From an uncultured Opitutales bacterium (GTDB lineage Bacteria; Verrucomicrobiota; Verrucomicrobiia; Opitutales; Intestinicryptomonadaceae): a DNA stretch of 64,000 bases. The stretch covers positions 8,715-72,714 of the forward strand of contig CALXNZ010000009.1 of NCBI GenBank assembly GCA_944389885.1, in the 5' to 3' direction. Below, piece by piece: positions 4,144 through 63,123 of the stretch. The notes below the pieces were generated by a model that was not told where the DNA came from, ran no database searches, and worked only from the letters and a program-made list of their open reading frames with translations. Both the position numbers and the translations under genes were made by a program. How positions within the stretch are numbered: position 1 is the stretch's first letter; the number at the start of each line of letters is the position of its first letter.

Positions 4144-4549
4144 CAAAAATTTTGCATTGTCTGCATAAATGGCAAATTGGCAAGGCATTTTGAAAGACGC
4201 AAAAATACCTGCCAAAAATCCTCAATCATCATATTGAGCAACGCCGTCCCCATGCGTCATGCGTTATTAATACAGCATACTTAACGCTAAGAATAATATG
4301 CCCCCAATGCAATCCCGTCACTCTCCAAATTATCCTTATTCCAAAACGATTTCACATTGTCGTATAAAATATTTTTTTCTTATTTAGATTATTATGCAAC
4401 TGTTCCAAGCTTACGCCCATATTTGAATCGCCCGGCATAAAGATTCATTATATCCCGCATGACGGGTATCTTATATTTATGCCACAACAGGACGCAGAAA
4501 AGTCTGCCAAATCCAATTTGCCTTTACAATCGGAACAGAACAAATAAAT

Positions 4550-6058: not shown

Positions 6059-6153
6059 GTCTTGTTTTGCCGCCCGCAAAACGCGCCTTTACCGCACAAA
6101 ATCATGCCCAACTTCCCAAAAAATAAATGATTGGCCGCAAAAGAATTGGCCGA

Positions 6154-7506: not shown

Positions 7507-7510
7507 TAAG

Positions 7511-8068: not shown

Positions 8069-8114
8069 ATAATTATTTGTTTATGTTTCCAATAAAGCTT
8101 CAAGAGCAAGAATC

Positions 8115-9179: not shown

Positions 9180-9279
9180 CTAAAATAAAAATCCCGTACA
9201 CAATAAAACAATAACGCCTTTCTGCAAGCGTAAATTGCGCGGACTAATTCGCATAAAAATATAACCCGCGTGGGAAAAT

Positions 9280-10683: not shown

Positions 10684-10714
10684 AACCGAAAAGTTCCCGT
10701 TCCGAAAAGCAGGG

Positions 10715-11650: not shown

Positions 11651-11776
11651 AAGGATACAAATTACTTTAGTTCAATGTTCACAAATCCCACCATTTTTTC
11701 AACCGATATTTTAAAAAACTCGACCATAGCTTCAATTTTCCTTGAGAAAAAAAGCATTACAGAAATTATTTTAAGC

Positions 11777-13621: not shown

Positions 13622-13627
13622 ACGAAT

Positions 13628-13660
13628 AAAAAAGCCGCGCGGCATAAACCGGCGGCTTAA
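13628..13660. terminator. hairpin between convergent mutL and purT
   Basis: aagccgc...gcggctt with A-run on the left side. Confidence 0.6.
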
Positions 13661-13669
13661 AGGTAAAAT

Positions 13670-14860: not shown

Positions 14861-14871
14861 GGTTGTGCCCC

Positions 14872-16782
14872 TTAGTTTGTTTGTTGAAAGAGAGAATTAA
14901 AAGCCTTTACGACGTCGTCCACATCTATCTTAGAAGCCGGAATTCCCCCCTGTGGAGGACAGGACGGCGGCAATACCTCCGCTTTTGGAGAATCGAACAC
15001 AAAACCGTTGCGCAGCGGATTAGTATCCCCGTAAAGCCCGACGACAGGAACCCCGACAGCGTTCGCCAAATGCGCTATCCCGACGTCCGATGCCACCGCG
15101 ATATCGCAGTTTACAAGCGATTCCGCTATGTTGGAGAATCCGCGCAGCTGCGTTTTATCCTCTATTTCCACAGAGTCTATCCCCCTCAATATATGGTACG
15201 CTGCCCGCGAATCCGCGGCATTTCCGTAAACCGCAAACTTGAGATTGTCCGCATTCGCCGACAACTTCGACGCCAACTCCGCCCACGCCTCAACTCCCCA
15301 TGAATCTGACGAATCAGATCCGCATATAAACGCCACCGTAATCGTTCCGTCCTTGTGACTTTCAGCTGAAGGCGGGAAAGCGTCGCGCATGGGAGTGCAA
15401 TCCACCTCGCAATCCATTCCAAATTTTTTCAGGAAATTTTCGTACTCAAACGATATGTGCTCTATTGATGCCGAGGCAGGAGAGCGATAAACCCAAGACG
15501 ACCAAAAGCTACTATTGCTATTTTGAGTTATGGCCACCCTAAACTGGCTCCCCATGAGCCATGCGCAAAAACGCTGAAAATGGGAATCGTCGAATACCGC
15601 GTGAATATCCGACGCAGTCGCGCGCATTTTCCAAAAAAATAAAATCTTTGATAGATTGGATTTCGGAAGCGGATAGACTTTTTCGGCTATTTTACAGCGC
15701 GATAAAAACGAGGCAAACTCCTCTTTGCAGAACAGATGCAAGGACGCGTCAAACCTCGATTTGCGAAGGGCCTTCAGCACAGGAATCAAAGCGGCTACCT
15801 TTGAAAACTCGTCGGGCATGCTTACAGATATTACGCTTCCCCTCGGAATATTTTTCCAACCGCGCAAGGCGCAAAATTCGTCGAAAATTTCATGGCGCAC
15901 GTCGGTTTGGAATAGGTTGTAAGGACGGCAGTTTGATTTCCAACGCTTATGCAGCCACAGCCAATCGTATCGAGCCACGGCGTCAGATTTCAATTTATTC
16001 TCGAGCCAAATGGAAGTCTTTGCGGTAAGATTTTCGGCATTGGTGTACTCTATGGGATCCCCGCATATTTCGGAGCTCCAAAATCCCGTCCTACGGGCGT
16101 AGAATACGAATGCCGGAGACTTTGAACGCTCCGCGAGTATCCCGTGCAAATTTGAAGTGGAACAGACCCTGTCCATAAAGAGTCCCCTCACGCCAGCCCT
16201 GCCCGATTCCTGGTCGAACAATACCGCAACGCAGCCGCCTTTTTGAAGAAAATCGAAAGCGGCTCCGATGCCGTTTCGTCGCGATATCAGATGCAGGCCA
16301 AAACGTTCGCGGCTCTTCTTTACCCATTTTTCCAATCCGCGGGAATCGAAAGGTCTGTAAATGACTCCAGTTTCCGGAGTTTTTCCGCTCCAAATAATGG
16401 GAAACATAGTTATAGTTTCCATCATGGAAAAATGCGGTATGCAAAGCACCGCAGGATAAGGGGACAATGCGTAGTCGGCCAATTTGTCTCTCACATAATC
16501 GCTCAATTTTATCCTCGAGCGCAGATAGTCTTCAGGCAGGTACGGACTCGCCAATACAAAAAGCGCCATTTCGACCATGCGCGCAGACGATTCCATTGCT
16601 ATTTTTGAACACTCCGCATTTCCCAGATTCGGAAAGCAGCGTCTTATATTTCGCTTGGCCAAACGCATGCGTGGGGACGGGAACGCCCATATTGCAAATC
16701 CCGCAAAACGGCATAGAAAACTCAGCACGCAATCCGGCAAACTTGCGAGGGCGCGGCCTAAAAATGTGAGAAAGTAATACAT
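14872..16782 (-). CDS. fusion of lipid A acyltransferase (LpxL/HtrB) and GT9 heptosyltransferase-like domain
   Basis: N-half has HFSMME (HxxxxE), LFDQ and WLWLHKRWK; C-half has [20 protein letters not shown]. Confidence 0.8.
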
Positions 16783-16836
16783 TAAAATTCAGCCGCACAT
16801 TAGCACAATTTGCCCGAATTGCAAAAATAAAACGCC

Positions 16837-17634
16837 CTATCTTTTCATAGCGGAAGCCAAAGAGCCAACGAATTCACCGACCTTATCGAGAGCGGCTGCT
16901 TCTCCTTCGCTCAAGAGGACATCGTGGGCCATATCCACTATCTTGCTTCCCACTACAACTGCATCGGCATGCCTCGCCGCCAAAGAGGCCATTTGGGGAT
17001 TGGATATTCCGAATCCGGCCGCCACCGGGAGAACCGACGCCTTCCTAACTTCCGCTATCCGTTCCACAAATTCTGTCGGAAGGGCGTTTCTTACTCCAGT
17101 GACGCCCATCACGGTGACATAATAGAGAAATCCCGATCCGCATTCGGATATTTTTTCTATTCTGTCCAATGAACTTGTAGGAGCGCCGAGCGGTATAAAA
17201 TCTATGCCGCGCGGTCGGGTATGTATCAGTATTTCATCGGATTCCTCCATTGGCACGTCAACCACGAGCCATGCGTCGATTCCCGATAGCGACGATTCCG
17301 CCGCGAGCTTCTCGAGCCCAAATTTAAAGAGAGGATTCATGTAAGAAAACAGGATAAACGGATTTGAAACCCCGGCTTTACGCAGCCGCGCGGACATTTC
17401 CAAAACGTCGCGCACGGAGGTTCCCGCGGCTCTCCTGCTTGCGGCTTGTATCGATTTACCGTCGGCCATAGGGTCGGAAAACGGCACTCCAAGTTCCACC
17501 ATATCCGCCCCCGCATCGCACACTCTGCGCACAAGCTTTTCAGTAAAGCCTATGTCGGGGTCGCCGCAGCTTATAAATACAACCAAAGCCGCACGATTTT
17601 CCTTCGCGGTCTTTTTAAATATGTGGTTTATCAT
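16837..17634 (-). CDS. trpA: tryptophan synthase alpha chain
   Basis: ELGVPFSDPMADG, GVTG and AGFGIS motifs. Confidence 0.96.
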   Translation of the reverse strand: MINHIFKKTAKENRAALVVFISCGDPDIGFTEKLVRRVCDAGADMVELGVPFSDPMADGKSIQAASRRAAGTSVRDVLEMSARLRKAGVSNPFILFSYMNPLFKFGLEKLAAESSLSGIDAWLVVDVPMEESDEILIHTRPRGIDFIPLGAPTSSLDRIEKISECGSGFLYYVTVMGVTGVRNALPTEFVERIAEVRKASVLPVAAGFGISNPQMASLAARHADAVVVGSKIVDMAHDVLLSEGEAAALDKVGEFVGSLASAMKR

Positions 17635-17635
17635 T

Positions 17636-18844
17636 CTATTTTTCTCCTCTGTTTAAATACTCTACTACGGAATCCATATCCTTATCCCCCCTGCCTGAGA
17701 GGCTTACCAAAATAATTTCGTCCTTTGAAAGGCTGCGGGCATTCTGCATAGCCAATGCAATGGCGTGCGACGATTCAAGCGCCGGAATTATGCCCTCATA
17801 CTTGCATAAAGCCCTAAAAGCCTCGACCGCTTGGGCGTCATCGACAGGCACATACACTGCCCGCCCAGTATCGTGCAAGTACGCATGCTCGGGACCTACA
17901 CCTGGATAGTCGAGCCCGGCCGACACTGAATGCGTATTGGAAATTTGTCCTTCGGAATCCTGCAAAAGGTAAGTCTTATTTCCGTGCAATACGCCAACGC
18001 TTCCGGCGTTTAGGCTTGCGCAATGGCGGCCAGTATGGATTCCTTCTCCCGCAGCTTCTGCCCCGTATAAAGCAACGGACTTGTCGTCTATAAAGGGCGC
18101 AAATATCCCTATTGCGTTGCTGCCGCCCCCCACACAAGCCACAACTTGCGAAGGCAACTTTCCGGTTCGCTCTGCCAACTGATTTTTTGCTTCCCTGCCT
18201 ATCACCGACTGGAACTCCTTAACCATTGTAGGATACGGATGCGGACCCGCCGCGGTTCCTATCACATAAAAAGTGTCGTCCACAGTGGCGGCCCAATTTC
18301 TGAGGGCTTCGTTCATTGCGTCTTTTAGGGTAGCCCCGCCGCCTGGAATCTCGACAGACACAAGATTTGCCCCGAGCATTTTCATTCTCGCGGCGTTTTG
18401 CGATTGTCTGCGAATATCCTCCGAACCCATAAATACATCGCAACTCATGCCGAACAAAGCCGCAACCGTAGCTGTGGCCACCCCGTGCATTCCGGCTCCA
18501 GTTTCAGCTATGAGGCGATGTTTGCCCATTCTCTTTGCTATGAGAGCCTGCCCGACAGTATTGTTTATTTTATGGGCGCCAGTGTGGTTTAAATCTTCCC
18601 TTTTTAACCATATCTGAGCCCCTCCGCAGTATTCGGAAAGCCTCTTTGCATGGTAGAGGGCCGAAGGCCTCCCGACATAGTCGCGAAGTATTTGCATGTA
18701 TTCGGCCCTAAAAGACTCGTCGGCTATGGCTTTTGTATAGGCATCTTCAAGCTCCAACAAAGCCGTCATTAAGGTCTCGGCGACATACATGCCGCCGTAT
18801 TCTCCGAATCTTCCTTTTTCAGTCCTTTGTGTTTTCATAATCAT
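17636..18844 (-). CDS. trpB: tryptophan synthase beta chain
   Basis: [30 protein letters not shown] and SAGLDYPG motifs. Confidence 0.97.
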
Positions 18845-19458
18845 ATTCTTTCAAAAAATTCTTTTAGTTTACTTTTGGATTTCCTTCCCGCTGAAATTTC
18901 CACGCCGCTGTTTACGTCAATACACCACGGATTCACCTTGGCAACAGCCTCTTTTACATTATCGGGACCTATTCCGCCCGCCAGCACTATCCGCCTGCGG
19001 GCTGACAATTCCGCAGCAAGTTTCCAATTAGCGCGCATTCCCGTTCCGCCCGTTAAACCGTTCAAACGCGAATCAACCAGTATCTTGTCGGACGCGGAAG
19101 CGGCGATATCCTCAAGGTCTTGCGGGCTATCAAGCCATGCCGCCCTCCATATCTCGACTCCTAAAGCCTCCTTCAATCTGAGCTCAAACTCCGCGCTCTG
19201 GGCTCCGTGCAGTTGCACAACGGATAGCCCCACTCTTTCAACCGCGTATTTTACGGCCTCAAAATCCTCCTCCACAAAGACGCCAACAGGTTTTACAATG
19301 CCTCTTGTGTGCGAGACTATATCGGCGGCTCTATCCGCACCTACAAAGCGCGGACTTTTTTGGAAAAATATAAATCCAATAAAATCCGCCCCCAAAGACT
19401 CCGCCAATACGGCGTCTTCCTGGGTTGTTATTCCGCACACTTTGACTTTAGGCTTCAT
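18841..19458 (-). CDS. trpF: phosphoribosylanthranilate isomerase
   Basis: KVCGIT, QLHG, GGTG, LAGGI and DVNSGVE motifs. Confidence 0.95.
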
Positions 19459-20248
19459 TTTTTTCTCCCAAGAGTTCCCTAAGCGCCTTGCCGACGTCAG
19501 CCCCGCCGCGCATTATCGATGTTCCAACAAGGACCGCATCGGCGCCGGCACTGCGCGCGCGCAGGATATCGCCTCTATTCCTTATCGCGCTCTCGGCTAC
19601 CTTTATTATGCCGGCGGGCACATTTTTCAAGAGCTCCAGCCCAGCCGACAAATCCGTGGAAAAATCGGCGAGGTTGCGGCAATTTAAGCCTATTATATCG
19701 GCGCCGCAATCCACGAGTTCAAAGATTTCCGAGGAGTCGTGAGCCTCCGCCAGGACGTCGAGGCCAACTGAATCTGCAAACTCTATAAGTTCGGCGATTC
19801 GCTTCTTAGGCAGCATTTTGGCTATGAGAAGTATTGCCGACGCCCCAGCCACTCTCGCCTCGCAAATTTGATATTCGTCAAATATAAAATCTTTGCGTAG
19901 CAGGGGTATTTTTACACACTCCCTGGCCTTTTTTAAATTTTCGATAGATCCCAAGAAATAATTGGGTTCAGTGAGAACGGATAACGCCGACGCTCCAGCA
20001 TATTCGAGCATTGGAGCCAAAACTGAAACATCAAAATCTTCGCGTATGACTCCCTCCGAAGGCGACGCTTTTTTCAATTCAGCTATTACAGCCGGATTTT
20101 CTCCGTCAATCTTCAGGGCATTCCTAAACGACGGCGGATAGGGCATTTTTAGAGATGCCTCCAAAATCTTTTCAAAAGGCACAAGTCTCTTTTTTTTCTT
20201 AAGAGGACCCTCTAATTCTTCTCTTATTTTTTCAAGTATGGATTTCAT
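19448..20248 (-). CDS. trpC: indole-3-glycerol-phosphate synthase
   Basis: IAELKKASPSEG, SVLTE, LRKDFI and VAESAI motifs. Confidence 0.95.
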   Translation of the reverse strand: MKSILEKIREELEGPLKKKKRLVPFEKILEASLKMPYPPSFRNALKIDGENPAVIAELKKASPSEGVIREDFDVSVLAPMLEYAGASALSVLTEPNYFLGSIENLKKARECVKIPLLRKDFIFDEYQICEARVAGASAILLIAKMLPKKRIAELIEFADSVGLDVLAEAHDSSEIFELVDCGADIIGLNCRNLADFSTDLSAGLELLKNVPAGIIKVAESAIRNRGDILRARSAGADAVLVGTSIMRGGADVGKALRELLGEKNEA

Positions 20249-21276
20249 AAACCTTGATTTGAAAACTCCAAAAGTTTTTTGAGTTTTGAAAGGGCCGCCC
20301 CGGAATCTATCGATTCTCTCGCCATTTTTACCCCTACTTCAAAACTTTCCGCCAATCCTGCCGCTACTATCGCCGCCGCAGAATTTATTACGCATATTTC
20401 GCGGGCTCCACCGCCAATCCTATTTTCCAAAACCCCGCGCAATATTTCCGCATTAACGCGGGCGTCGCCTCCGTCTATGTCGGATTCCGGAAAAGAACAA
20501 TCAACATAACGCGAAGCTTCAAACTCGTAAGTTTTGATTCTCCCTTCTCGCAGTTCGCTTACGCGGGTGGGAGCGTATATGCTGATTTCGTCCATATCGT
20601 CGTCTCCGTGCACTACATACGCCCTCCTCACGCCGAGTTCCCTAAGGCACTCTGCCATCATTTCAGTCAAAGATGGCTCGAATACCCCTATTACCTGTGC
20701 AGTAGCCCCCGCCGGATTTACCAAAGGCCCCAATATGTTAAATATCGTACGCACTCCAAGGGCGCGCCTTACTGCTGCGGCATGTCTCATGGCAGGATGC
20801 ATCTTTTGGGCAAACAGGAAAGCTATGCCGTTTTCTTGCAGGCAGTGTTCCATTACGGCCGGATGCACGTCCAAATTGAATCCCAATTCCGCCAAAACGT
20901 CCCCGGAACCGCATTTGCTGGCAACCGCCCTATTGCCGTGCTTTGCCACGCACACTCCGGCTCCGCTTGCTATAAACGCGCAAGTTGTGGAAATGTTAAA
21001 TGTCCCCCTGCTTCCACCTCCCGTACCGCATGTATCAAGCGGAGAAAGCCCGCCGGCGTTTATGAAAGCCGCGCGGGCGCGCATGGCCTGCGCGGCGCCG
21101 ACTATCTCGTCAACGCTTTCACCTTTCATCTTCATGGCGGAGAGAAAAGCACCCAATAACGAAGGATCTACATTCCCCGACATAATCTCGTCAAAGACGC
21201 CCCTGCTCTCTGAACGTCCGAGAGAAATGCCTTCATTTGCGATTTTTTCAAAGGCAGATTTAGTCTTTGAGCTCAT
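20245..21276 (-). CDS. trpD: anthranilate phosphoribosyltransferase
   Basis: DTCGTGG, FNISTT, KHGNR and TIFNILGPL motifs. Confidence 0.95.
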   Translation of the reverse strand: MSSKTKSAFEKIANEGISLGRSESRGVFDEIMSGNVDPSLLGAFLSAMKMKGESVDEIVGAAQAMRARAAFINAGGLSPLDTCGTGGGSRGTFNISTTCAFIASGAGVCVAKHGNRAVASKCGSGDVLAELGFNLDVHPAVMEHCLQENGIAFLFAQKMHPAMRHAAAVRRALGVRTIFNILGPLVNPAGATAQVIGVFEPSLTEMMAECLRELGVRRAYVVHGDDDMDEISIYAPTRVSELREGRIKTYEFEASRYVDCSFPESDIDGGDARVNAEILRGVLENRIGGGAREICVINSAAAIVAAGLAESFEVGVKMARESIDSGAALSKLKKLLEFSNQGL

Positions 21277-21848
21277 TTTGCGTTAACTCCGTCGAGAAAA
21301 TTTGCCAGTATGCGTTTTCCTCCAACTGTCGATATCGATTCCGGGTGGAATTGCACCCCCTCAATTGGAAACTCAAGGTGGCGCAAAGCCATAATCTCGC
21401 CGTCTGGAGAGCGCGCCGAAACCTCGAGGCAGGAAGGCAAAGAAGCCTCCTCCACCGCGAGGGAATGATACCGCACCGCCACCATTGGGTTGGCCATTCC
21501 GCGAAACACTCCGCGGCCGTCGTGCGTTATCGGGCAGGTCTTGCCGTGCAATATGCTTTTAGCCCGCACGATTTTCCCCCCGAAAGCGCAAGCTATCGAC
21601 TGCATGCCCAGACATACCCCGAATATCGGAATCCTATCGGCGAATTTCTGTATGAACTCCACGCATACCCCCGCGCTTTGCGGAGAACTCGGCCCGGGCG
21701 ACACTATAACAGCAGTGGCTCCCAATTTGAATAAATCTTCCGCGCCCATGCAATCGTTGCGGGCAACGAGCACCTCCCTGCCTAATGTCTCCACATAGTG
21801 GACGAGATTGTACGTAAAGGAATCGTAATTATCTATAAACAACACCAT
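21273..21848 (-). CDS. trpG: anthranilate synthase component II (glutamine amidotransferase)
   Basis: IDNYDSFTYNL, SPGP, GVCLG and QFHPES motifs. Confidence 0.95.
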   Translation of the reverse strand: MVLFIDNYDSFTYNLVHYVETLGREVLVARNDCMGAEDLFKLGATAVIVSPGPSSPQSAGVCVEFIQKFADRIPIFGVCLGMQSIACAFGGKIVRAKSILHGKTCPITHDGRGVFRGMANPMVAVRYHSLAVEEASLPSCLEVSARSPDGEIMALRHLEFPIEGVQFHPESISTVGGKRILANFLDGVNAK

Positions 21849-21854
21849 AATAAG

Positions 21855-23378
21855 CTACCTCCCAATAGAGTCAACCGCGAGATTATCTATGCCTCCGGCT
21901 ATTTTTACCGCTTTCGAGACCGCCTGGGCCTTTATGCGGGTTTCCTCCAATTCCGCGTCTGGATTGGAATCGTAAACGATTCCCGCCCCCGCTTGAACCG
22001 TGAGCATATCTCCCCGCATCTGCAATGTGCGTATGGTTATGGCCATATCCATGTTTCCGCCGTACCCTATGTACCCTGCGGCGCCTCCATAGGGGCCTCT
22101 GCGGCAGCTTTCGAGCTCGTTTATTATCTGCATTGCCCTGACCTTGGGCGCCCCGGAGAGTGTGCCCGCGGGAAACACCGCAGCAAGAGCGTCGAAGGCG
22201 TCAACGCCTGGCTTTGCCTCGCCGTTGACGGTCGAAACCATATGCATCACATGAGAATACCTCTCTATGCTCATAAAGTCCGAAACTTGCACGCTCCCGG
22301 CATAACAAAATCTGGAAATATCGTTGCGGCCCAAATCGACCAGCATCAAATGCTCGGCGCGTTCCTTCTCATTGGCCAATAGCTCTGATGCAAGCTTTAT
22401 ATCTTCATTTTTGTCGCTTCCCCTGCTGCGCGTACCGGCTATTGGACGCACCTGCACTTTGCCGTCGCACAGGCGTATGAGCGTTTCAGGAGAAGACCCG
22501 ACAAGGCATGAACCCCCGGCGTCTCTAAAACAAAACATATATGGAGACGGATTTATCAGCCTCAAGGCTCTGTAAGCCGACAACGGCGTAATATTGGCTT
22601 TTACCCCAAACTTGCGCGAAAGCACAACCTGTATTATCTCTCCGCTGCGTATGTACTCCTTTGCCCGTTCAACCATTTCCATATAAGAACTTCCGTCCAT
22701 TTCGGACCTCATGAAAACTTCTCTTGCAGTGTCGATATCGCGCGACTCCGCAATTCCCGCCTTCGACTCCGACCTGAAAAGCTTTATAAGCTCCGAAACC
22801 CTGCTTGAAGCGTCGGCATATGCTTCCTCAAGGGTGTCGAAGTCGTCGGTATGGGCGCAGGCGACTATCTTCGCGGTGTGGTGGATATTGTCGAATATGA
22901 TTACGTCGTCATAAAGCCCAAAGCGGGCGTCGTCCCATTCCATTTCACCTTTAGGAGGCGGAAGCTTTTCAAATAGATTGACACATTCATAGCCAAAGTA
23001 TCCCACGGCCCCTCCGAAAAATCTCGGCAATTCGGGAAGTTCAGCAATTTTCCGCCCCGCCAGATAATCGCGCAACGGAGAAAGCGCTTCCATGCCTTCG
23101 GCATTTTCCGGAGAGCGGATGAGTTTGCCGCTTTTAAACGCGAGCTCTCCAAGGTTTCCCCTGAGGCGAAATTCCGCGCGCGGATTGCAGCCTATAAACG
23201 AATAGCGCCCCCAATTATCGACATTCTCCGCACTCTCGAGCAGGAATGCGGAAATATTTCTCGGGAGCTTTGCAAAAACCGAAACCGGAGTTTCCATATC
23301 CGCCAGAAGCTCTGTGAACACGGGTATTACGTTTGCCCCGCGAGCTAAGTTTTTAAACTGAGTTATATTCGGTGTCAT
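21855..23378 (-). CDS. trpE: anthranilate synthase component I
   Basis: LLESAE, NPSPYM, PIAGTR, EHLMLVDLGRND and PAGTLSGAPK motifs. Confidence 0.96.
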   Translation of the reverse strand: MTPNITQFKNLARGANVIPVFTELLADMETPVSVFAKLPRNISAFLLESAENVDNWGRYSFIGCNPRAEFRLRGNLGELAFKSGKLIRSPENAEGMEALSPLRDYLAGRKIAELPELPRFFGGAVGYFGYECVNLFEKLPPPKGEMEWDDARFGLYDDVIIFDNIHHTAKIVACAHTDDFDTLEEAYADASSRVSELIKLFRSESKAGIAESRDIDTAREVFMRSEMDGSSYMEMVERAKEYIRSGEIIQVVLSRKFGVKANITPLSAYRALRLINPSPYMFCFRDAGGSCLVGSSPETLIRLCDGKVQVRPIAGTRSRGSDKNEDIKLASELLANEKERAEHLMLVDLGRNDISRFCYAGSVQVSDFMSIERYSHVMHMVSTVNGEAKPGVDAFDALAAVFPAGTLSGAPKVRAMQIINELESCRRGPYGGAAGYIGYGGNMDMAITIRTLQMRGDMLTVQAGAGIVYDSNPDAELEETRIKAQAVSKAVKIAGGIDNLAVDSIGR

Positions 23379-23390
23379 TTTGAGTAGGCC

Positions 23391-23454
23391 AAAAAAAAGC
23401 GGCCAGACAAAAGGCCGCCAAAGTTTAAAATGCTTCTTTTAAACTTATGCGACC
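23391..23454 (-). promoter_or_regulatory. trp attenuator with mutually exclusive antiterminator and terminator
   Basis: Terminator GCGGCC-8nt-GGCCGC-U8 (23391-23418); GGUCGC (23449-23454) can instead pair with its 5' arm across a 10-bp AU hairpin (23421-23446). Confidence 0.82.
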
Positions 23455-23480
23455 CCTCGACTGAACCACCAAGCGTTCAT
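23445..23480 (-). CDS. trpL: trp operon leader peptide MNAWWFSRGVA
   Basis: 11-codon ORF with tandem TGG TGG, between the trp promoter and the attenuator terminator. Confidence 0.85.
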   Translation of the reverse strand: MNAWWFSRGVA

Positions 23481-23502
23481 TTGAAATAAATTTTTTGTGA
23501 AA

Positions 23503-23527
23503 ATTATATCTTTCGGAAATTTGTCAA
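23503..23527 (-). promoter_or_regulatory. trp promoter, TTGACA-N13-TATAAT
   Basis: Perfect consensus hexamers 13 bp apart; the -10 box ends 22 nt upstream of the trpL ATG. Confidence 0.65.
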
Positions 23528-23641
23528 ATAAAATTTTAAATGTTTCTGAAGTTGCCGTCCCTTTATTTTGCCGAAAAGAGCAATAAAAAAACTCATGCCT
23601 ACAGCTTAAACAAAAGCTTAACCTTAAGATTTTCCTAAAAG

Positions 23642-23671
23642 AAAGCGGGCCCCCTTTAAAGGGCCGCCCGC
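23642..23671 (-). terminator. GC-rich hairpin after PEP-CTERM gene 1
   Basis: gcgggc-ccc...ggg-cc-gcccgc, followed by a short T-run on the minus strand. Confidence 0.5.
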
Positions 23672-23692
23672 CCCGCAAAAATTGCGATACAA

Positions 23693-25147
23693 CTAAGAGC
23701 GGCGCCTGCGATATGCCGCAAACGCCAATACTGCCATGCCAAACATTGCCGCTACGGAAGCCGGCTCCGGAATGACCTCGAGAGTATATTCGTAAACGCT
23801 CTCACCTTCGTACTCCACTATGTTCTCCACAATTTTGTATCCGTCTTCATAGCCTTCAAACACAAAGGTTGAGAGCTTTTCATCGCTAAGGTTCTCGTCG
23901 AAGAACAGATGGTCTTCGCCCAAAACATAGTTCTTTATTATAAGTTGCGAGCCGTCCGCAATTATCTTGCCTCCTAAAACAAATACACTTGCCCACAACA
24001 CTTGTCCCACATCGTTCTGTCCGAAATCTACTATGCCGTACATTGTTTGGGCGGGATCGCTATACAGATATAAAGCGTTTATTCTCTCGCTGAATCCGTT
24101 AAGCTCAAACACGCCTCCCAACCCACCCGCAGAGGCGGGATTCTTAAGCTGCACACTCGCTTTGTCCCCGATCTGGTCGGACGCCAATAGCCTGAATGTG
24201 GATCCGCTCATAATTTGAACGGCTGTAGAGCAAACCTGGGCTCCATCTTTCATTCCGGACTCCACAACTATGCCGTTTATCAACTGCATGCCGGTCACCG
24301 ACAATTCGTTGCTCTCGCTGCCGTCGAAACGTATGACGCCAGAGGTATAGCCGGCTACGGCCTGTTGCGCATTGTCGAGAGCCAGAAATACATTCCCGCC
24401 TGTCTTTATCTTTGAGCTTATAATTATATCCCCAGTGTGAATGTTATGTCCGTTAACCTCGTCGCTCTTTGCGTTCATTATATACAACGAATTATAATTG
24501 CCATCGGCATCGGGCAAAACCTCGATTTTATAACCGGCGTCGAAATACAAATTCTTTTTGTCGGCCAGATTCTCCACAGGATCTTCTCTCGAGCTTCCGG
24601 ATTTATTGTAGATAAACATATTTCCACTTGTGGTGGACAACAAATTTACATCAATAGCCACATGAAAATCTTCGTCCCACTGGCAATTTTCCAAGACAAC
24701 ATTGGTTTGTGTATTTATATCGTTAGTGTATGGGGTAGTCAAAGTCAGATTGAGGGAGACGTCGTCGGTAGTTCCCGTGATTCCCCTTACCACATATGTG
24801 CCTTTGTGTTTTAATTGGCTTATAGTAATATCCGAAGATACTTCCACATAAGTTGCAGGCTGATAATTCGGATCTTTTCCAAAAAATCCGGAATAATTGC
24901 CCAAATAGGCTCTATCGCCATCTCCCGGAACAAACCCAGCTGGACGTGTATTATAGCTTCCAGAAGAATTTATATCGCCCGAAGGTGCAACAGTCGACCA
25001 ATTTAACGTGTCTTCCCAATTTCTTGAATATTCCTCACCTTCCAACAACTCTTCCGGTCCTCTCGTAAAGTATAGAGTTGTACCGGCAAATGCTGTTGAG
25101 CCAAACAAGAGCATTAATGACGAAATAATTTTAGAAGAAAATTTCAT
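23693..25147 (-). CDS. PEP-CTERM surface protein, paralog 1
   Basis: Signal peptide; C-terminal VIPEPAS, TM helix and RRRRS; beta-rich passenger-like body. Confidence 0.9.
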   Translation of the reverse strand: MKFSSKIISSLMLLFGSTAFAGTTLYFTRGPEELLEGEEYSRNWEDTLNWSTVAPSGDINSSGSYNTRPAGFVPGDGDRAYLGNYSGFFGKDPNYQPATYVEVSSDITISQLKHKGTYVVRGITGTTDDVSLNLTLTTPYTNDINTQTNVVLENCQWDEDFHVAIDVNLLSTTSGNMFIYNKSGSSREDPVENLADKKNLYFDAGYKIEVLPDADGNYNSLYIMNAKSDEVNGHNIHTGDIIISSKIKTGGNVFLALDNAQQAVAGYTSGVIRFDGSESNELSVTGMQLINGIVVESGMKDGAQVCSTAVQIMSGSTFRLLASDQIGDKASVQLKNPASAGGLGGVFELNGFSERINALYLYSDPAQTMYGIVDFGQNDVGQVLWASVFVLGGKIIADGSQLIIKNYVLGEDHLFFDENLSDEKLSTFVFEGYEDGYKIVENIVEYEGESVYEYTLEVIPEPASVAAMFGMAVLAFAAYRRRRS

Positions 25148-25500: not shown

Positions 25501-25635
25501 ATGAAACCATTCAACTTTACATTGGCTCTTGCAATCTGCCTTATGGCATTCACTTATTTGTTTACAGTACACGCCCAAGCCGCGCAGCTTCCATCTCAGG
25601 AAGCTACGGTATTTGTTTCATTTCCCGTTCCGTAG
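25501..25635 (+). CDS. small ORF (44 aa), putative secreted peptide
   Basis: MKPFNFTLALAICLMAFTYLFTVHAQA/AQLPSQEATVFVSFPVP; Sec-type signal ending AQA; below the ORF-track cutoff. Confidence 0.45.
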   Translation: MKPFNFTLALAICLMAFTYLFTVHAQAAQLPSQEATVFVSFPVP

Positions 25636-25811
25636 CAGCGCATTTTCAATTTATTATATAAGGGCACATTCCCCGGCGCATAAATTATTTCCCTCACAAC
25701 GTTTAGACATAGGCTGTTGTGTAGCTGTTGGCTTTTCAATAAAGAATTAGAAATTTACTTTATCAAACACGGGCCAGATTCTTAGGCGTATTTCACGTTA
25801 TTTTAAGGCAC

Positions 25812-25846
25812 AAAAAAATCGGGCAAATCGCTGATTTGCCCGATTT
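25812..25846 (-). terminator. intrinsic terminator of PEP-CTERM paralog 2
   Basis: Perfect 14-bp stem aaatcgggcaaatc/gatttgcccgattt, 3-nt loop, T-run on the minus strand. Confidence 0.8.
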
Positions 25847-25856
25847 CCCAGAAAAG

Positions 25857-27323
25857 TTAAGCTACGCGCCTGCGATGCTTCACCACTGCCGCCGCCACTG
25901 CGGCGACTCCTATTAGAACCCCCGCCAACGCCGGTTCCGGAATAGCCGCAAGGGTGTATTCGTAAACGCTTGCGCCTTCGTGCTCGACTATATTTTCCAC
26001 AATTTTATATCCGTTTTCATAACCCTCAAAAACGAAGGTTGCGAGTTTTTCGTCGTCGAGGCTCTCGTTGAAGAATAAGTGGTCTTCGCCCAAAACGTAG
26101 TTTTTAATTATAAGCTGTGAACCGTCCACAATTATGTTTCCGCCCAACATATAAGTGCTTGCCCACAACACCTGTTCCACATTGTTTTGGCCAAAATCCA
26201 CGATTCCGTACATCGCCTGGGCGGGATCGCTATACAAATACAAAGTCGCTATTTTTTCGCTGAATCCGTTAAGCTCAAATACGCCTCCCAATCCTCCCGC
26301 AGAAGTTGGATTCTTAAGCAGCACACTCGCGCTATCTCCCACTTGGTCGGACGCCAGCAATCTAAATGTCGATCCGCTCATAATTTGAATGGCGGTCGAA
26401 GACACCTGGGCGCCTTCCTTCATTCCGGATTCCACTACTACCCCGTTTATCAGCTGTATGCCGGTCGCCGATAATTCGTTGCTTTCGCTGCCGTCAAAAC
26501 GTATCACGCCAGAGGTATAGCCGGCTACGGCCTGTTGCGCATTATCGAGGGCCAGAAATACATGCCCGCCTGTCTTTATCTTTGAGCTTATAATTATATC
26601 CCCAGTGTGAATGTTATGTCCGTTAACCTCGTCGCTCTTTGCGTTCATTATATACAACGAATTATAATTGCCATCGGCATCGGGCAAAACCTCGATTTTA
26701 TAACCGGCGTCGAAATACAAATTCTTTTTGTCGGCCAGATTCTCCACAGGATCTTCTCTCGAGCTTCCGGATTTATTGTAGATATACATATTTCCACTTA
26801 CCTTAGAAAACAAATTCACATTTATGGAAAGATGAAAATCTTCGTCCCACTGACAGTTGTCTAAAACCACATTCGTCTGTGTTCCCTGATCGTTGGTATA
26901 GGAATTGAAAGGGCTTAAAACCAAGTTTATTGAGGCGTCCTCCGTAATGGCAGATATCCCGCGCACGACAAAGGTTCCTTGATGCTTTAGCTGGCTTACA
27001 GTCACTGACGTAGAAACTTTTACATAATTCGTGGATTGGTAATTGGGGTCCGTTCCGAAAAACCCAGAATAACTGCCAATATAAGCCCTGTCGCCCTCTC
27101 CGGGCAGAAAACCTGCCGGACTTGTATTATAAGTTCCGGGAGAATTCACTTCACCGGCAGGAACTACAGTTGATCAATTTAACGTATCTTCCCAATTTCT
27201 TGAATATTCCTCACCTTCAAATAACTCTTCCGGTCCTCTCGTAAAGTATAGAGTTGTACCGGCAAATGCTGTTGAACTTAACATGAGCATCAATATCGAA
27301 AGAAGTTTAGCATAGATTTTCAT
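25857..27323 (-). pseudogene. PEP-CTERM surface protein, paralog 2, interrupted by an in-frame TGA
   Basis: ATG 27323 and its signal peptide are in frame with ORF 25857..27149; TGA at 27174-27176 where paralog 1 has TGG; C-terminal IPEPAL, TM helix and KHRRR. Confidence 0.8.
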
Positions 27324-27370
27324 AATAATTTTTGTTCTAATGGTTAGACTTACCTAACTCACAAAAGTTT

Positions 27371-27396
27371 ATTTTAAAAATTTCTGTTTTTGTCAA
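27371..27396 (-). promoter_or_regulatory. promoter TTGACA-N14-TAAAAT
   Basis: Upstream of PEP-CTERM paralog 2. Confidence 0.5.
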
Positions 27397-27788
27397 CTTT
27401 TTCTTTGAATATTTTTTGAATCAGAATGATTTTATTGGATTTTAACATCGAACTAAAGTTAAACGATAAAAAACCAAATGCAACAAAACTTATAAAGTTG
27501 TTGAATTTTAGACTCTTAAGTTAGCCCTATAATAGAGAGCGAGTTTTGAAAAATTTTATGTGGAAGCTATTTTATCAGCTTTCTATATTAGCATTTACTT
27601 ATTTTTTTGCCCAGTAATCTCAAGCCACACGATTACTCAGCAAGCTGTAATGTGATATTTACTCCATACAGCACAAATTTTCTGATTAGTTTATTCCACG
27701 TCAGCCGGCATTTAATAGACGAGATATATAATAACGTCTTGAACAAAACATTTGACCGTAAAAAAAGGTCCATTAAAAACCATGTTAG

Positions 27789-30251
27789 ATGAGGAACTTA
27801 TTTTTTGCACTGTCCATATTAGTTTGCCTCGACACCGTTGCGACTGAAATTAAGCCGCCACTGGAGGCAACAGCCACTGGAGCTATCTTCCAACAAAGCG
27901 ACAATTTGGAATTTACATTGAGAGAGGATCCCCAAAAAACTCTTTCGTGGAAATTATACGACTGGCGCGGAAATAAAATACAAGAAGGTTCGATGCCACC
28001 CGACGGCAGGCTCAATCTTTCGCCGCTGCCCAACGGATACTACAGCATACGTTTGTACGACGGCGATAAGGAATTTGGCGCCGCCAGAACTTTTGCTGTG
28101 ACATTCGACATTTCAAGCCGAAAGAAATCCCCCAATTCCCCTTACGCCCTCGACTCCGCTCAAAGTTGGCTCGCCAGGAGGAATCCCGACAATCCGCACC
28201 AGCCCGATAACGCTTTTGAAATAGTTTCCGATGTCGCGGCAAAATGCGGAGCTTATACTATAAGGGAACGCATGAGTTGGGGGGAAAGCGAATCCTCTAA
28301 GGGAAAATTCAGCTGGGGAAATTATCAGACAAATGCCGATTTGTTATCGCAACGCGGCATAGGGATACTCGGAATGTACCACGACTCCCCTTTATGGGCC
28401 AGGGGAAAAAACACAAAACTCCCCTCAGACCTCACCGCTACTTATTCCTACGCGAAAGAACTGGCTTCCCACTTCAAAGGCAAGATGATAGCTTGGGAAT
28501 TCTGGAATGAAGAGGATATAAGTTTCACGCAAGAATCCGCATGGGAATACGCGGCGAATATGAAGGCCGCCTATCTTGGATTTAAAGCGGGCAATCCGGA
28601 TATTCCCGTGCTTTTGGGTTCGCTTTGCAAACCCTTGGACGCATACGCCAACGCCATCTTTGAATGCGGCTTGGAAAACTATATGGACATATTCAATTAC
28701 CATATCTATATGCCCGTATCAAAATATCCCCGGATAATGCAAAGCCTTCGCGATTTTTCAGAAAAATACGCCTTCTTGCAAAGTCCGATTTGGATAACAG
28801 AAAACGGCACGAACCATGAGGGGTCCGCAAAAGAGAACTCCCCCATGGAGGGAATAAAGTCCCATTCCTTTGAGCAGGAACTAATAGTTGCCGAACAGCT
28901 GCCAAAACAAATGATACTCTTGCAATTTCTGGGCGCGGATAGAATTTTCGGATTCGTCCTTCCGCCCTACAATGAACGCGGCGGGTCAAAAGACTGGGGT
29001 TATATGCGCCGCGATTTTACTGTAAAGCCGGCTATATCGGCATTTTCCACGCTCACGTTTAACCTCGCCGCCGCGACCCCGCTTGGCGAGCTCAAGCTTA
29101 ATAATGGAGTGCGGGCCTTCCTTTACCTCCAGCCCGACGGAACGCAAACCGTAGTTCTATGGAGCAAATCCGAAATAGACAATTTAGAATCGGAAAATCC
29201 AGACTCCATAAAACTCTCCGACAATATTCCCATTCAACTACAAATCCCTCTCGAAGCTTCCGAAGCAAAAGACGCATATTTCGGATTTGATATAATGGGA
29301 TCGCCCTTAGCATTTAATTGCCGCGACGGAATTCTCAAACTGACCGCGACGAGATTTCCCATGTATATAAACGGACTTCGGGGATTGGCTCCCGACATAA
29401 AATTCAAAAACAACAAAACTCCCGGCGCCCCTAATAGGCCCGACTTGGATAAAACCATAGTTTACAGAGCCGAGTTAAACGAAGATTTCAAGCTCCAGGC
29501 AATGAAGCATATGGCATTTCTAAACAAGCCTACCGGCAAAATCGTCCTGGAAATATATAATTTTTCCGATGAGGAAAAAAGCGGCGCCATAGATGCAACT
29601 GGAGGAGATTTCAAGGGATTGCCGGATTCGCTCAAACTTCCTCCCATGTCAAAAACAAAACTTGAGTTATCGGTATCTCCAAAAGAGGAAACTTTGGTAT
29701 TCTGCGGAAGATTCAACGGAAAAAATACGACTCCCTTAAAGATGGCTGTCGCGTCTTTGGGATTTCTCGATTCTCTCGAACGCAAAACTCCGGCAAATAT
29801 AAACGACCCGTCCCGTTGGCGGGCAAACGCATCGGGAAAGATGAAAATAGAATGGGACGAAACGGAAAAGGCGCTGCGCTTTGATGTCGAGTTCCCCGAC
29901 GGCGGGGACCAATGGGTCTATCCTGAATTTGCGTTTAAGGACAGATTTTCAATCGAGGGGGCAAAATACGCCACCGTCGAAGTAAAATCATCTGTTGGCT
30001 CGAAGCTCCTAAAGCAATCCCTTTTAATGTGCGACGCGCAAAGGGAGGGAAATACTGGGGAATCGGAATATTTCTCTTCCAATCTGCCGGACAAGCAATG
30101 GCAGACTTCCACTATTTGCATATCTCCGCAAAAAATAGATGCAAAGCATGTGAAAAAAATCAAATTTGGGCTCAACGTCAGCAACAAAACAAAAAAAGTC
30201 TCATACTGGATACGAAACCTTACTTTTTACTACGGCAAAAAAACGCAATAA
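27789..30251 (+). CDS. secreted clan GH-A glycoside hydrolase (GH39/GH5-like) with C-terminal beta-sandwich
   Basis: Signal peptide; WEFWNEED acid/base, FNYHIY and IWITENG nucleophile motifs. Confidence 0.7.
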   Translation: MRNLFFALSILVCLDTVATEIKPPLEATATGAIFQQSDNLEFTLREDPQKTLSWKLYDWRGNKIQEGSMPPDGRLNLSPLPNGYYSIRLYDGDKEFGAARTFAVTFDISSRKKSPNSPYALDSAQSWLARRNPDNPHQPDNAFEIVSDVAAKCGAYTIRERMSWGESESSKGKFSWGNYQTNADLLSQRGIGILGMYHDSPLWARGKNTKLPSDLTATYSYAKELASHFKGKMIAWEFWNEEDISFTQESAWEYAANMKAAYLGFKAGNPDIPVLLGSLCKPLDAYANAIFECGLENYMDIFNYHIYMPVSKYPRIMQSLRDFSEKYAFLQSPIWITENGTNHEGSAKENSPMEGIKSHSFEQELIVAEQLPKQMILLQFLGADRIFGFVLPPYNERGGSKDWGYMRRDFTVKPAISAFSTLTFNLAAATPLGELKLNNGVRAFLYLQPDGTQTVVLWSKSEIDNLESENPDSIKLSDNIPIQLQIPLEASEAKDAYFGFDIMGSPLAFNCRDGILKLTATRFPMYINGLRGLAPDIKFKNNKTPGAPNRPDLDKTIVYRAELNEDFKLQAMKHMAFLNKPTGKIVLEIYNFSDEEKSGAIDATGGDFKGLPDSLKLPPMSKTKLELSVSPKEETLVFCGRFNGKNTTPLKMAVASLGFLDSLERKTPANINDPSRWRANASGKMKIEWDETEKALRFDVEFPDGGDQWVYPEFAFKDRFSIEGAKYATVEVKSSVGSKLLKQSLLMCDAQREGNTGESEYFSSNLPDKQWQTSTICISPQKIDAKHVKKIKFGLNVSNKTKKVSYWIRNLTFYYGKKTQ

Positions 30252-59555: not shown

Positions 59556-59927
59556 TTATTCCGATTTAAGTAAATTCTCGAAGAAATCACCGATTTTGCA
59601 ATCATCATCTGGAATGTACAAGAACGCGTAGCAGCGGTCGCACACGCCTATGTTTTTAGCCTTTTCAAGATAGTCGAGTTCGTCCTTGGGCACGGGAGTT
59701 CCGCAAAAAGAGCATTTGCCGTTTTCTATAGCGGCTATTCCGCGCCCGCCGGAAGCCTCGAGCCTGTCGAAGTGCGATAGCGCAAATGGAGGAACGCGCC
59801 GCCGGTTTTCAAGAATAAAGTCGCGCAACTTTTGTATGTCGTCGGCGGACATTCCCTTGTTGTTTGTGAGGCGTTCTGCTTGGCGTATTTTTATAAGACG
59901 CAAGATAATATCGCGCGTTTCTTTCAT
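59556..59927 (-). CDS. small protein with C4 zinc ribbon
   Basis: Coiled N-terminus, then A.IENGKCSFC...CDRC; second ATG preferred. Confidence 0.7.
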   Translation of the reverse strand: MKETRDIILRLIKIRQAERLTNNKGMSADDIQKLRDFILENRRRVPPFALSHFDRLEASGGRGIAAIENGKCSFCGTPVPKDELDYLEKAKNIGVCDRCYAFLYIPDDDCKIGDFFENLLKSE

Positions 59928-59942
59928 AATATGCCGCATATA

Positions 59943-60085: not shown

Positions 60086-60358
60086 TTATTTCGCTTTGAA
60101 ATCGGAGCCGGCTTTGAACTTGATGGCCTTGGAAGCCTTAATCTTAATCTTTTCCTTGGTCTGGGGGTTGATGCCGGTACGAGCCTTGCGTTCCACCACG
60201 GAGAAGGTTCCGAAGCCGATGAGCTGAAGCTTCTTCTGCTTCTTTACGCCCGCCTTGATGGCGTCGAGAACGGCATTCAGAGCGCGTTCAGCGCAAGCTT
60301 TGGTAGCTTCCTTGCCGAGGAGTTTTTGTATTTCTACGATGAGTTCTGCTTTATTCAT
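60086..60358 (-). CDS. hup: HU DNA-binding protein
   Basis: MNKAELI, GFGTF, RTGINPQT and FKAGS motifs. Confidence 0.95.
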   Translation of the reverse strand: MNKAELIVEIQKLLGKEATKACAERALNAVLDAIKAGVKKQKKLQLIGFGTFSVVERKARTGINPQTKEKIKIKASKAIKFKAGSDFKAK

Positions 60359-60728
60359 AGTTTTTTATTTTTTGTTTGTTTGAGACAAAATCTACACGTT
60401 GCTGTAGAAAATAAAAAGGGGAACCCCCAGCCAGCGTCGTTAATATTGTGCCGCGCAAAATCATGCAGTTTGCGACCAAAAAATCGAACCCGTCTGCGCG
60501 ACAAAATCAACTTCGTTTGTTAAAGAGCCCTCTTATTTGTTCTAAACGTTAGACATATAAAGGTAGAGGTCAACATAAAATTTAAAAAAATTTTCCGCAA
60601 ACTCGCACCCGCAAAGGCTTGGAGGGGATTTGGCAAATGGAACAAAAATTGAACTTACAAAATTGTTCAATAACTACCGTACTAAAAATATTAGGAAACG
60701 CCCGAGCTCAAAAACGCAAAAATTCCGG

Positions 60729-62100: not shown

Positions 62101-62448
62101 TCAAATAAGTTTGAGCTTAGCCTCTATTTTTCTCATGGCAGACTCGCTAATTGACACCTCTCCGGAAACCCCATAGGGGTTTTCTCTTGCAGGCTCGCAC
62201 TTTATAGCCGACAATTTCTGAATTACTCCCGCCAAGGCATTCAACTCCGTTGGAGAAAGGCTTCCCGCCGGAGAGCACAACATGTCGAATGCGGCTTCCC
62301 ACGCCTTGTCCAAGGCGGCTTTCGGAATGTCGCTTGAAAAATTTTCCGCTATTTTTTTTGCATTCGCAGAGGCCGACCTTATGCGTTCGATGTGCTCCAG
62401 AAAAGCTCCCCCGCTACCGGAGTCTTTTTCTTTCCTTTTTGCAGCCAC
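62101..62448 (-). CDS. Mu gp27/DUF3486-like terminase small subunit, N-terminally shortened
   Basis: IERIRSASANAKKIAE helix and C-terminal ISESAMRKIEAKLKLI resemble the gp27 family; position directly before TerL. Confidence 0.6.
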   Translation of the reverse strand: MAAKRKEKDSGSGGAFLEHIERIRSASANAKKIAENFSSDIPKAALDKAWEAAFDMLCSPAGSLSPTELNALAGVIQKLSAIKCEPARENPYGVSGEVSISESAMRKIEAKLKLI

Positions 62449-62449
62449 T

Positions 62450-62713
62450 TCAGACCTCCCCGGATTCGAGGTAATCGCGCCCGTCCGCCGAAAGCTTGGC
62501 GCGCAATTCTCCGGCTGACAAAGCGGAACGGGAAAGTGTTATCATACCCTTCTGCGCCAGATAGTCCAATTCCGAAGAAAGTTCTTTTAAGTCCATGCAA
62601 AAGCCCGCCGTTTCCAATCCCACAAGTATTGTCGAACGCGGAAGGCTCGCCGGAGACGCCGCCTCAAGTTGCAGCAATATAGTGCGCCTCAAGCTTAAAA
62701 TATCCATATTCAT
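62450..62713 (-). CDS. Mu gp26-like small winged-helix protein
   Basis: RRTILLQL...ELDYLAQKGMI...KLSADGRDY pattern and position. Confidence 0.65.
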   Translation of the reverse strand: MNMDILSLRRTILLQLEAASPASLPRSTILVGLETAGFCMDLKELSSELDYLAQKGMITLSRSALSAGELRAKLSADGRDYLESGEV

Positions 62714-63123
62714 ATCGAAGATCCACCTTTCATTTTAAGGACAATTCTATCGGTTTTTAAAGAGAGTTCGCATATGCGCTGATTCGCAATTTGAGCCTGC
62801 GCAACGAGAGAACTTATATTTTGGGCATTGCGCCCGGCAAGTTCACGGGCTTCTTCAAATCCACGAATATATTGCTTTTGCATGGTCCGAACTTCGTCGC
62901 GGATTTCCGCGCGCAAATTGCGTATATCTTGGACAGCCTCTCCAAGGCAACGCATTATTTCCGCGCGCACTTTTTCCATTTGCTGATGCGTCACATAAGT
63001 AAGCTTTGGATCCGGTTTTTCCGCATAAAATTCCCTAATGCGCAATGCCAGGCAATACGCGCCTAAAATCGCCGTAAGCGATACGAGCGCAGTGCCTATA
63101 ATTTGAGCGTTTTCAATATCCAT
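62710..63123 (-). CDS. Mu gp25/DUF2730-like protein (N-terminal TM plus coiled coil)
   Basis: Single N-terminal TM then coiled coil; ATGA overlap with the next gene; position. Confidence 0.55.
   Translation of the reverse strand: MDIENAQIIGTALVSLTAILGAYCLALRIREFYAEKPDPKLTYVTHQQMEKVRAEIMRCLGEAVQDIRNLRAEIRDEVRTMQKQYIRGFEEARELAGRNAQNISSLVAQAQIANQRICELSLKTDRIVLKMKGGSSI

Follow-up and report, generated by a model that had tools for sequence, protein, structure and literature searches.

A short Mu gp27-type small terminase subunit in a candidate gene transfer agent-like element of gut Opitutales

The gp27 protein of phage Mu, represented by the family PF11985, is the putative small terminase subunit (TerS) of Mu-like phages. 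A shortened TerS of this type is encoded beside the large subunit (TerL) in a gut Opitutales chromosome, and the question raised by this locus is what such a pair is kept for and whether it still selects the DNA to be packaged. The window, meaning the whole stretch of 64,000 nucleotides that was analysed, represents ordinary chromosome with the trp operon, purE, fba and a GH97 gene. Its host belongs to the gut Opitutales family that holds 'Coraliomargarita sp. CAG:312', Ca. Merdousia and Intestinicryptomonas porci (the CAG-312 family). A preliminary description of this DNA had proposed that TerS lacks its DNA-recognition domain, as expected for non-specific packaging. The answer favoured here, which we consider reasonably probable as a whole, is that a gp27-type TerS devoid of this domain serves in a Mu-derived head and packaging set fixed in the chromosome, which would package DNA in the manner of a gene transfer agent (GTA), without choice of a pac site.

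The short reading frame and its kinship with Mu gp27

In the ORF listing of the window, positions 62101-62448 of the minus strand form a 115-aa ORF with a GTG start. Read along this strand, the junction with the preceding gene runs ...GGGGAGGTC TGA A GTG GCT GCA AAA AGG..., where the TGA of the 87-aa gp26-like ORF (62450-62452) is followed by a single base (62449) and then by the GTG of TerS (62446-62448). Upstream of this GTG the frame stays open for about 30 codons (145 aa from stop to stop), contains no ATG, GTG or TTG and overlaps the gp26-like gene, so that an N-terminal extension of TerS is impossible. The sequence itself therefore bears out the preliminary description of a 115-aa, GTG-initiated ORF one base pair past the gp26-like stop with no room for an extension. 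TerL begins 16 nt after the TerS stop. The features of the module are collected in Table 1.

Table 1. Features of the terminase module and its 3' neighbour, with positions counted from the first letter of the window
Feature	Position	Strand	Basis
hup (HU), host gene, synteny anchor outside the element	60086..60358	-	Pfam Bac_DNA_binding; synteny
Intact Mu-type TerL, 451 aa	60729..62084	-	Terminase_6N/6C, phrog_5909
TerS, Mu gp27-type, without HTH, 115 aa	62101..62448	-	ORF, hhalign, orthologues, dN/dS
C-terminal helix and motif of TerS, residues 102-115 ..SESAMRKIEAKLKLI, candidate TerL-docking segment	62104..62145	-	I108, E109, L112 and L114 near-invariant; docking by analogy with RcGTA gp1
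Conserved helical core of TerS, residues 15-81: F..H(L/I)ERI..A, W50, F54, NxLAGVIQKL	62206..62406	-	Alignments; AF2 helices
Basic, disordered N-tail of TerS, residues 1-14 MAAKRKEKDSGSGG, in place of the phage three-helix domain	62407..62448	-	AF2 pLDDT ~50, no secondary structure
Shine-Dalgarno-like GGGGAGG, 6 nt 5' of GTG	62455..62461	-	Direct sequence reading
gp26-like 87-aa protein, phrog_436, NF050184 VpaChn25_0724 family, possible winged helix	62450..62713	-	Family matches; weak MarR/SlyA/FabT PDB matches
TM + coiled-coil protein in Mu gp25 position	62710..63123	-	Synteny; dN/dS 0.05-0.12

A frameshift or readthrough that would fuse the gp26-like protein to TerS, and thereby give back an N-terminal winged helix, was considered and rejected, as the frame relation of the two genes varies (same, +1 or overlapping). 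Such a fusion is also disfavoured by the HTH-bearing phages, which likewise have a separate gp26-like gene.

The 115-aa protein finds no match in Pfam, PHROGs or NCBIfam, and PF11985 (Phage_Mu_Gp27, formerly DUF3486) gives none even at E<=10. Against the gathering threshold of 28 bits for PF11985, canonical prophage TerS score 135-145 bits, the HTH-bearing prophage TerS L072 scores 30.2, a 182-aa TerS of a prophage in the same genome as the window (contig C15), a close relative of L072, 23.1 and the HTH-less relative L067 18.1, the last touching the profile at positions 51-167 only. A word-based homologue search for TerS recovers two near-identical proteins only. The kinship emerges from comparison of profiles. 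Aligned as two independent sequence sets, 25 family orthologues and 36 TerS of Mu-like prophages match with hhalign at 97.5% probability (E 6.6e-12), and the alignment pairs the whole TerS core and C-terminus with template columns 51-184 of 185. A second run reached a probability of 98.4%, which is not independent since its query alignment shares four HTH-bearing TerS with the target set. Within the same genome, BLASTP aligns residues 55-182 of the C15 prophage TerS with residues 14-115 of the window TerS, including the corresponding motifs GAFLEHIERIRSA/GAFAEHIEKMRRA and KIEAKLKLI/IEEKIKLL; the family HMM scores this genome's prophage TerS at 39.5 bits. Moreover, the short TerS and PF11985 members have two motifs in common, F..H(L/I)E..I..A and, at the C-terminus, IE..LKLL.

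By profile comparison, the window protein is thus a gp27-family TerS that lacks the first ~50 profile positions. As it falls below the curated Pfam threshold, it is a divergent truncated derivative of gp27 and no regular member of the family. The alignment to gp27/DUF3486 that had been drawn by eye fails as a direct Pfam search and holds with profile methods, and the homology whose lack would have spoken against the proposal exists at that level. The gp27 length of 180-190 aa given in that description was correct, the median of 95 distinct related TerS being 185 aa. Set beside Mu gp27 and PF11985, the window TerS has the same place between a gp26-like gene and a Mu-type TerL, homology from position ~51 to the end and the same C-terminal '(S/T)xExLxxIExxLxLL' helix. 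It differs in the loss of profile positions 1-50 and ~30 residues of the central helix, in its length (115 aa versus the median of 185 aa, under the Pfam threshold) and in its setting, a vertically inherited chromosomal module rather than a transposable phage.

What has been lost is best seen in predicted structures. The AF2 model of the window TerS, built from a 32-sequence alignment (pLDDT 73), is disordered at residues 1-12, continues with helices at 13-36, 43-57 and 66-81, and ends in a disordered linker and a helix at 102-111. The model of L072 (pLDDT 83) opens with a three-helix bundle at 14-56 (pLDDT ~90), followed by helices at 58-81, 85-106, 112-167 and 171-183. Compared with it, the short TerS is predicted to miss the N-domain and, in addition, ~30 residues of the long central helix. 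The N-domain of canonical TerS gives weak HTH_WhiA and HTH_32 matches, and it may reasonably be taken for the DNA-recognition (HTH-like) domain of gp27; this label derives from predicted architecture and these weak matches and not from a solved gp27 structure. Of the earlier statement that an N-terminal helical/HTH region is missing, the helical part stands, as the three-helix domain predicted in L072 is absent here, and the HTH identity is reached by way of weak matches. The long central helix is likely the oligomerisation element; since most of it has gone as well, oligomerisation of the short TerS is not assured. Profiles run against PDB sequences found no solved gp27-type TerS. Foldseek searches with the TerS model against PDB and BFVD, and with the L072 model against PDB, returned nothing below E 0.5; these are uninformative because the two extended helical monomers were modelled at low pTM (0.35 and 0.49).

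Spread of the short form and its chromosomal setting

Of the 46 species genomes of the family, which represent four genera, 43 encode a TerS orthologue, nearly always as a single copy. At each family locus examined, it starts at or overlaps the gp26-like stop and has no HTH, so that the orthologues share the truncation point and the HTH-less core start, as the preliminary description had wished to see checked. Their N-tails vary from 0 to ~250 residues of low complexity, often rich in K, R and A, and lead into the same F..H(L/I)ERI..AK core. Short tails are mostly net positive, long tails are roughly neutral and some orthologues have none.

Further relatives were sought by a profile search of 1.84 billion representative proteins, which yielded 199. 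Among the best 150 of these 199, the median length is 129.5 aa and 111 have at most 30 residues before the core. Thirteen relatives with longer tails were read individually; the extension is of low complexity in 12, and the HTH type occurs only in P0131. The TerS of ordinary Mu-like phages are of a different size: the 95 distinct proteins, drawn from genomes and IMG/VR contigs and encoded beside related TerLs (53-60% identity), have effective lengths of 160-223 aa and keep the N-domain. Equally short TerS, which could have made the truncation commonplace, are in this comparison confined to compact Verrucomicrobiota elements (L066, L067, L075, L080, L083, L089, L090, L154, G055 and G288). A tree built from 151 TerL sequences unites the 29 from the family in a single clade (SH-aLRT 100). 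The remaining short-TerS elements branch next to it as a grade, and 108 sequences with long or unclassified TerS group apart in a clade of their own (97); the label 'short TerS' needs to change only 2-4 times on this tree. As judged from these sequences, the truncation is an old trait of one compact Mu-derived element lineage in several Verrucomicrobiota. Since the HTH-less form predates the CAG-312 family, it is not tied to domestication in that family alone.

In some orthologues (L042, L044 (=G021), L038 (G037), L050 and L097), the N-terminus is extended by 100-250 low-complexity residues in which G, A, S, K and C abound. Internal repeats occur in part of these long extensions, for example KAAQGKVVPEKVALGKAAPVK..., and the extensions diverge much faster than the core (dN/dS 0.40 vs ~0.15). 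A metagenomic variant, P0002, from an ENA contig of 1150 nt, has 152 aa, of which the C-terminal 83 are 84% identical to TerS, and its first 69 residues have 50% identity to an unrelated gene at G000:C3:129805-129999. Because of this resemblance of its N-terminal part, P0002 was treated as an assembly chimera or a rearrangement disrupting the gene in one strain.

The module itself is syntenic in 16 of 16 widely sampled family genomes, in the order TM/coiled-coil protein, gp26-like protein, TerS and TerL. The cultured strain Intestinicryptomonas porci Cla-KB-P66 also carries it, on contig NZ_JALBUT010000010.1 (L056). The longest ORF of the TM protein starts from TTG at 63201, and its relatives align from Met27, that is, from 63123. 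The gp26-like gene is syntenic in all sampled relatives; its profile meets winged-helix proteins of the MarR/SlyA/FabT type in the PDB at E 0.08-1, which is not significant, and a Pfam search leaves traces of RecX_HTH and LexA_DNA_bind. In 14 of these 16 genomes, the gene on the other side is hup, which lies 3' of TerL with the same orientation at a distance of ~370 bp (60359-60728 here). In compact elements from other Opitutales, hup is not an immediate neighbour. HU takes part in Mu transposition as a host factor. Downstream of hup, a 127-aa protein (59556-59939, minus strand) shows a C-terminal CxxC...CxxC zinc-ribbon-like motif with weak Pfam traces. The flanks of the module contain no integrase or replication genes, the neighbours being host genes (GH97, hup); likewise, neither a portal nor a capsid gene stands beside the module and no further phage genes lie nearby in the window.

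All four ORFs are intact in every family locus examined. For close species pairs with unsaturated dS, dN/dS is 0.05-0.07 for TerL and 0.14-0.16 for TerS, and in the same pairs 0.05-0.12 for the TM protein and 0.11-0.34 for the gp26-like protein. The Walker-type, coupling and nuclease motifs of TerL are invariant in 33 sequences.

The head genes are found elsewhere in the genome (2.2 Mb, 27 contigs). At C2:181114-188485 lies a Mu-type head cluster without TerL, which comprises a portal, a scaffold/protease-like protein, a PF09956 decoration protein, the major capsid protein, three small head-completion-type proteins and proteins of 569 and 211 aa. One copy of the high-identity (59-82%) capsid is present in 44 of the 46 family genomes. 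Nothing in the set was recognised as a tail or lysis gene. Family searches with the ~570-aa and ~210-aa proteins gave no matches; the 569-aa protein is conserved at ~30% identity in compact elements of other Opitutales. The distance between the terminase and capsid loci varies. They are adjacent and divergent in G036 and G043, and in G024 16 kb of one contig separates them. In G018 a single contig carries them at 96 kb and 1.72 Mb, and in the genome of the window they fall on separate contigs, with a distance of at least ~83 kb between them. In G045, a member of the same genus with a reduced 1.6-Mb genome (95% complete), TerL, TerS and capsid are all absent together.

Outside the family, compact elements are patchy: among 300 genomes of the class, only 2 more, both of the same order, have them. 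In other Opitutales (G048 and G288), all genes stand in one ~11-kb cluster in Mu late-gene order. Contiguous head and terminase clusters of ~11 kb without recognisable tail genes are found in G048, G288, G055 and L154, and the neighbours of the G288 cluster are MnmE, exonuclease III (Xth) and an aminotransferase; neither an integrase nor replication genes accompany it. A MAG of an unrelated member of the Verrucomicrobiota (G049, L089/L126; C8:~25600-28100) has a TM protein, a gp26-like protein, a 127-aa HTH-less TerS and TerL in succession, with no portal behind them. As this is a second stand-alone module, it suggests that the terminase module was separated from the head genes on more than one occasion.

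In the genome of the window, full Mu-like prophages on contigs C15 and C17 contain two additional TerL paralogues (60% and 53% identity). The 5' neighbours of these TerLs are proteins of 182 aa (C15:4761-5309) and 201 aa and their 3' neighbours are Mu-type portals (PF06074), and both prophages also carry gp26-like proteins beside the HTH-bearing TerS. The prophages span C15:~4000-23000 and C17:~5200-24600, with TerL, portal, capsid and long tail modules, and the ORFs of the two tail regions are identical in length. Each contig begins within its prophage, probably as a result of repeats that broke the assembly. A search of this genome for the Mu transposase family PF09299 gave no match, and since the control genomes gave none either, this result carries no information.

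Proposed packaging without a pac site and its alternatives

Synteny, purifying selection, intact TerL motifs, dispersal of the particle genes over at least two loci, loss of terminase and capsid together and the lack of integration or replication genes indicate a domesticated, no longer self-transmissible and hence GTA-like element, a reading that is well supported by the genomics. A GTA is recognised by particle genes that are inherited vertically under purifying selection, and here they occur in 43-44 of 46 genomes with dN/dS of 0.05-0.16. Replication, integration and lysogeny genes are lacking, and the set is not a self-transmissible unit. [quoted passage not shown] The genomic signature is that of a Mu-derived set kept for a function requiring the packaging of DNA into heads. 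Inherited, as the sequences indicate, from parent to offspring, this packaging and capsid set is a candidate for a new GTA.

The mechanism envisaged is as follows. A TerS without the sequence-reading domain would still assemble with TerL and activate it. Its C-terminal helix, predicted at residues 102-111 with a near-invariant motif shared with the TerS of HTH-bearing phages, would dock onto TerL, by analogy with RcGTA gp1. With no pac site to be selected, the terminase could start on any DNA, and the heads would fill with arbitrary chromosomal DNA. The loss of pac specificity would in this way lead to random packaging of host DNA, as the comparison with RcGTA lets one infer. The conserved gp26-like neighbour, a possible winged-helix protein, may bind DNA and might restore specificity. 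The basic N-tail may additionally provide a weak, non-specific electrostatic contact with DNA; this idea is ranked low because some orthologues have no tail, and the tail as a replacement DNA-binding element was set aside in view of tail-less orthologues and long tails that are roughly neutral.

Among the alternatives, the one that touches the mechanism most closely keeps packaging sequence-specific, with recognition supplied in trans by the gp26-like protein, the TerS core or a host factor such as HU, so that a defined locus is packaged. The gp26-like gene does lie directly 5' of TerS in all sampled genomes and is under selection (dN/dS 0.11-0.34), its profile has the weak winged-helix matches and HTH-type traces described above, and hup stands 3' of TerL in the sampled family genomes. 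Yet the PDB matches are not significant, and gp26-like proteins are no replacement for the lost domain, because the HTH-bearing TerS of the C15 and C17 prophages have them too. Nor would specific self-packaging bring any gain to particle genes that are dispersed over two or more distant loci. We regard this alternative as unlikely. The split also bears on the proposal that the element is a satellite of the cf-PICI type, with its own heads and terminase, tails taken from Mu-like helpers and a short TerS that redirects packaging. The ~11-kb clusters without tails in G048, G288, G055 and L154, the patchy spread outside the family and the two Mu-like prophages in the same genome as potential helpers would suit such a satellite. 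With its loci separated by at least ~83 kb here (96 kb vs 1.72 Mb in G018), the element cannot package itself, and against a satellite speak the lack of integrase, replication or regulatory genes at the flanks, the position beside hup fixed across four genera, the single clade of family TerLs, and the TerL identity of the 80 best IMG/VR matches, which is 60% at most. It is accordingly given a rather low probability.

Two simpler explanations fare worse. That the protein is not a terminase subunit at all, merely an unrelated small helical protein in the TerS position, accords with the lack of a direct family match, of a significant structural match and of a solved gp27-type structure for comparison. 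It is very improbable in view of hhalign probabilities of 97.5-98.4% over the whole core and C-terminus, the two motifs held in common with PF11985 members and the conserved slot between the gp26-like gene and TerL. Least credible of all is that the module is an inert prophage remnant and the short ORF a decayed fragment of TerS. A remnant would account for hup instead of a portal after TerL, for the absence of phage genes nearby in the window and for the foreign 5' part of P0002. It is at odds with the occurrence of the module, its four ORFs intact in every locus examined, across four genera (43 of 46 genomes), with dN/dS well below 1 and invariant catalytic motifs of TerL, and with a matching, conserved capsid cluster that was lost together with the module in G045.

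Relation to known systems

The closest parallel to GTA-like packaging by the Opitutales set is the GTA of Rhodobacter capsulatus (RcGTA). Its small terminase, gp1, is devoid of the N-terminal domain for DNA binding, binds DNA without sequence specificity and requires a conserved helix at its C-terminus to interact with TerL (Sherlock et al. 2019; PMC6854486). [quoted passage not shown] They differ in that no sequence kinship can be detected: the TerS family is another one, as is the TerL lineage (Mu-type here), and the hosts are Alphaproteobacteria in one case and Verrucomicrobiota in the other. Non-specific DNA binding and essentiality, which have been shown in RcGTA, are only inferred here. 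The principle of a GTA small terminase without a DNA-binding domain has been published for RcGTA (PMC6854486). New here, as a well-supported genomic prediction, is the same TerS architecture in an unrelated family (Mu gp27), in a different phylum and in a family-wide Mu-derived element. An undescribed GTA of Mu-phage origin in gut Opitutales, with HTH loss from TerS convergent with RcGTA gp1, is a possibility that we put forward tentatively.

GTAs are difficult to distinguish from prophages, and few independent lineages of them have, to our knowledge, been described. Literature searches found no GTA of Mu-like phage origin and no description of this family-wide Mu-derived element. With the GTAs of dispersed genes (RcGTA, BaGTA, VSH-1, Dd1 and VTA), the Opitutales set shares phage-derived genes inherited vertically under purifying selection, more than one locus and the lack of replication or integration genes. 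It differs from them in its ancestor, a Mu-like phage, in that tail and lysis genes were not recognised, and in being known from its genes alone.

If the favoured reading is true, human- and animal-gut Verrucomicrobiota harbour a Mu-derived GTA lineage, which would represent an independent GTA origin in a new phylum. It would also be a second, unrelated case of domestication accompanied by a TerS without DNA-recognition domain, and would back the RcGTA-based proposal of HTH-less 'GTA-type' TerS as a discovery marker. Loss of the HTH from TerS could then serve as a general mark, searchable in sequences, of a change from selfish packaging to packaging without specificity. Moreover, a route of chromosomal gene exchange would be at hand in a poorly studied gut clade, one or more members of which are in culture. 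Should the reading prove wrong, the locus would remain a clear case of a terminase pair retained over the long term while detached from capsid genes.

The comparison with satellites is of a different kind. The cf-PICIs have their own genes for capsid, TerS and TerL, and tails are all that they steal (bioRxiv 10.1101/2022.09.08.507074). Like them, the present element is a compact set (~11 kb when contiguous) with TerS, TerL, portal, capsid and connectors and no obvious tail. Unlike them, it has no integrase, AlpA or replication module and occupies a fixed syntenic locus, and in the CAG-312 family the gene set is split, so that it is no mobile unit. A satellite would be recognised by an integrase, a regulatory and replication module and variable presence; the flanks hold no such genes, and the position is fixed. 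Among the contiguous sets, that of G048 (L124; UBA1116) has one peculiarity. After its ~590-aa protein follows a 509-aa protein (ORF 9745-11274, minus strand), the N-terminal part of which resembles the ~200-aa protein of the other elements and which continues into a long extra C-terminal region.
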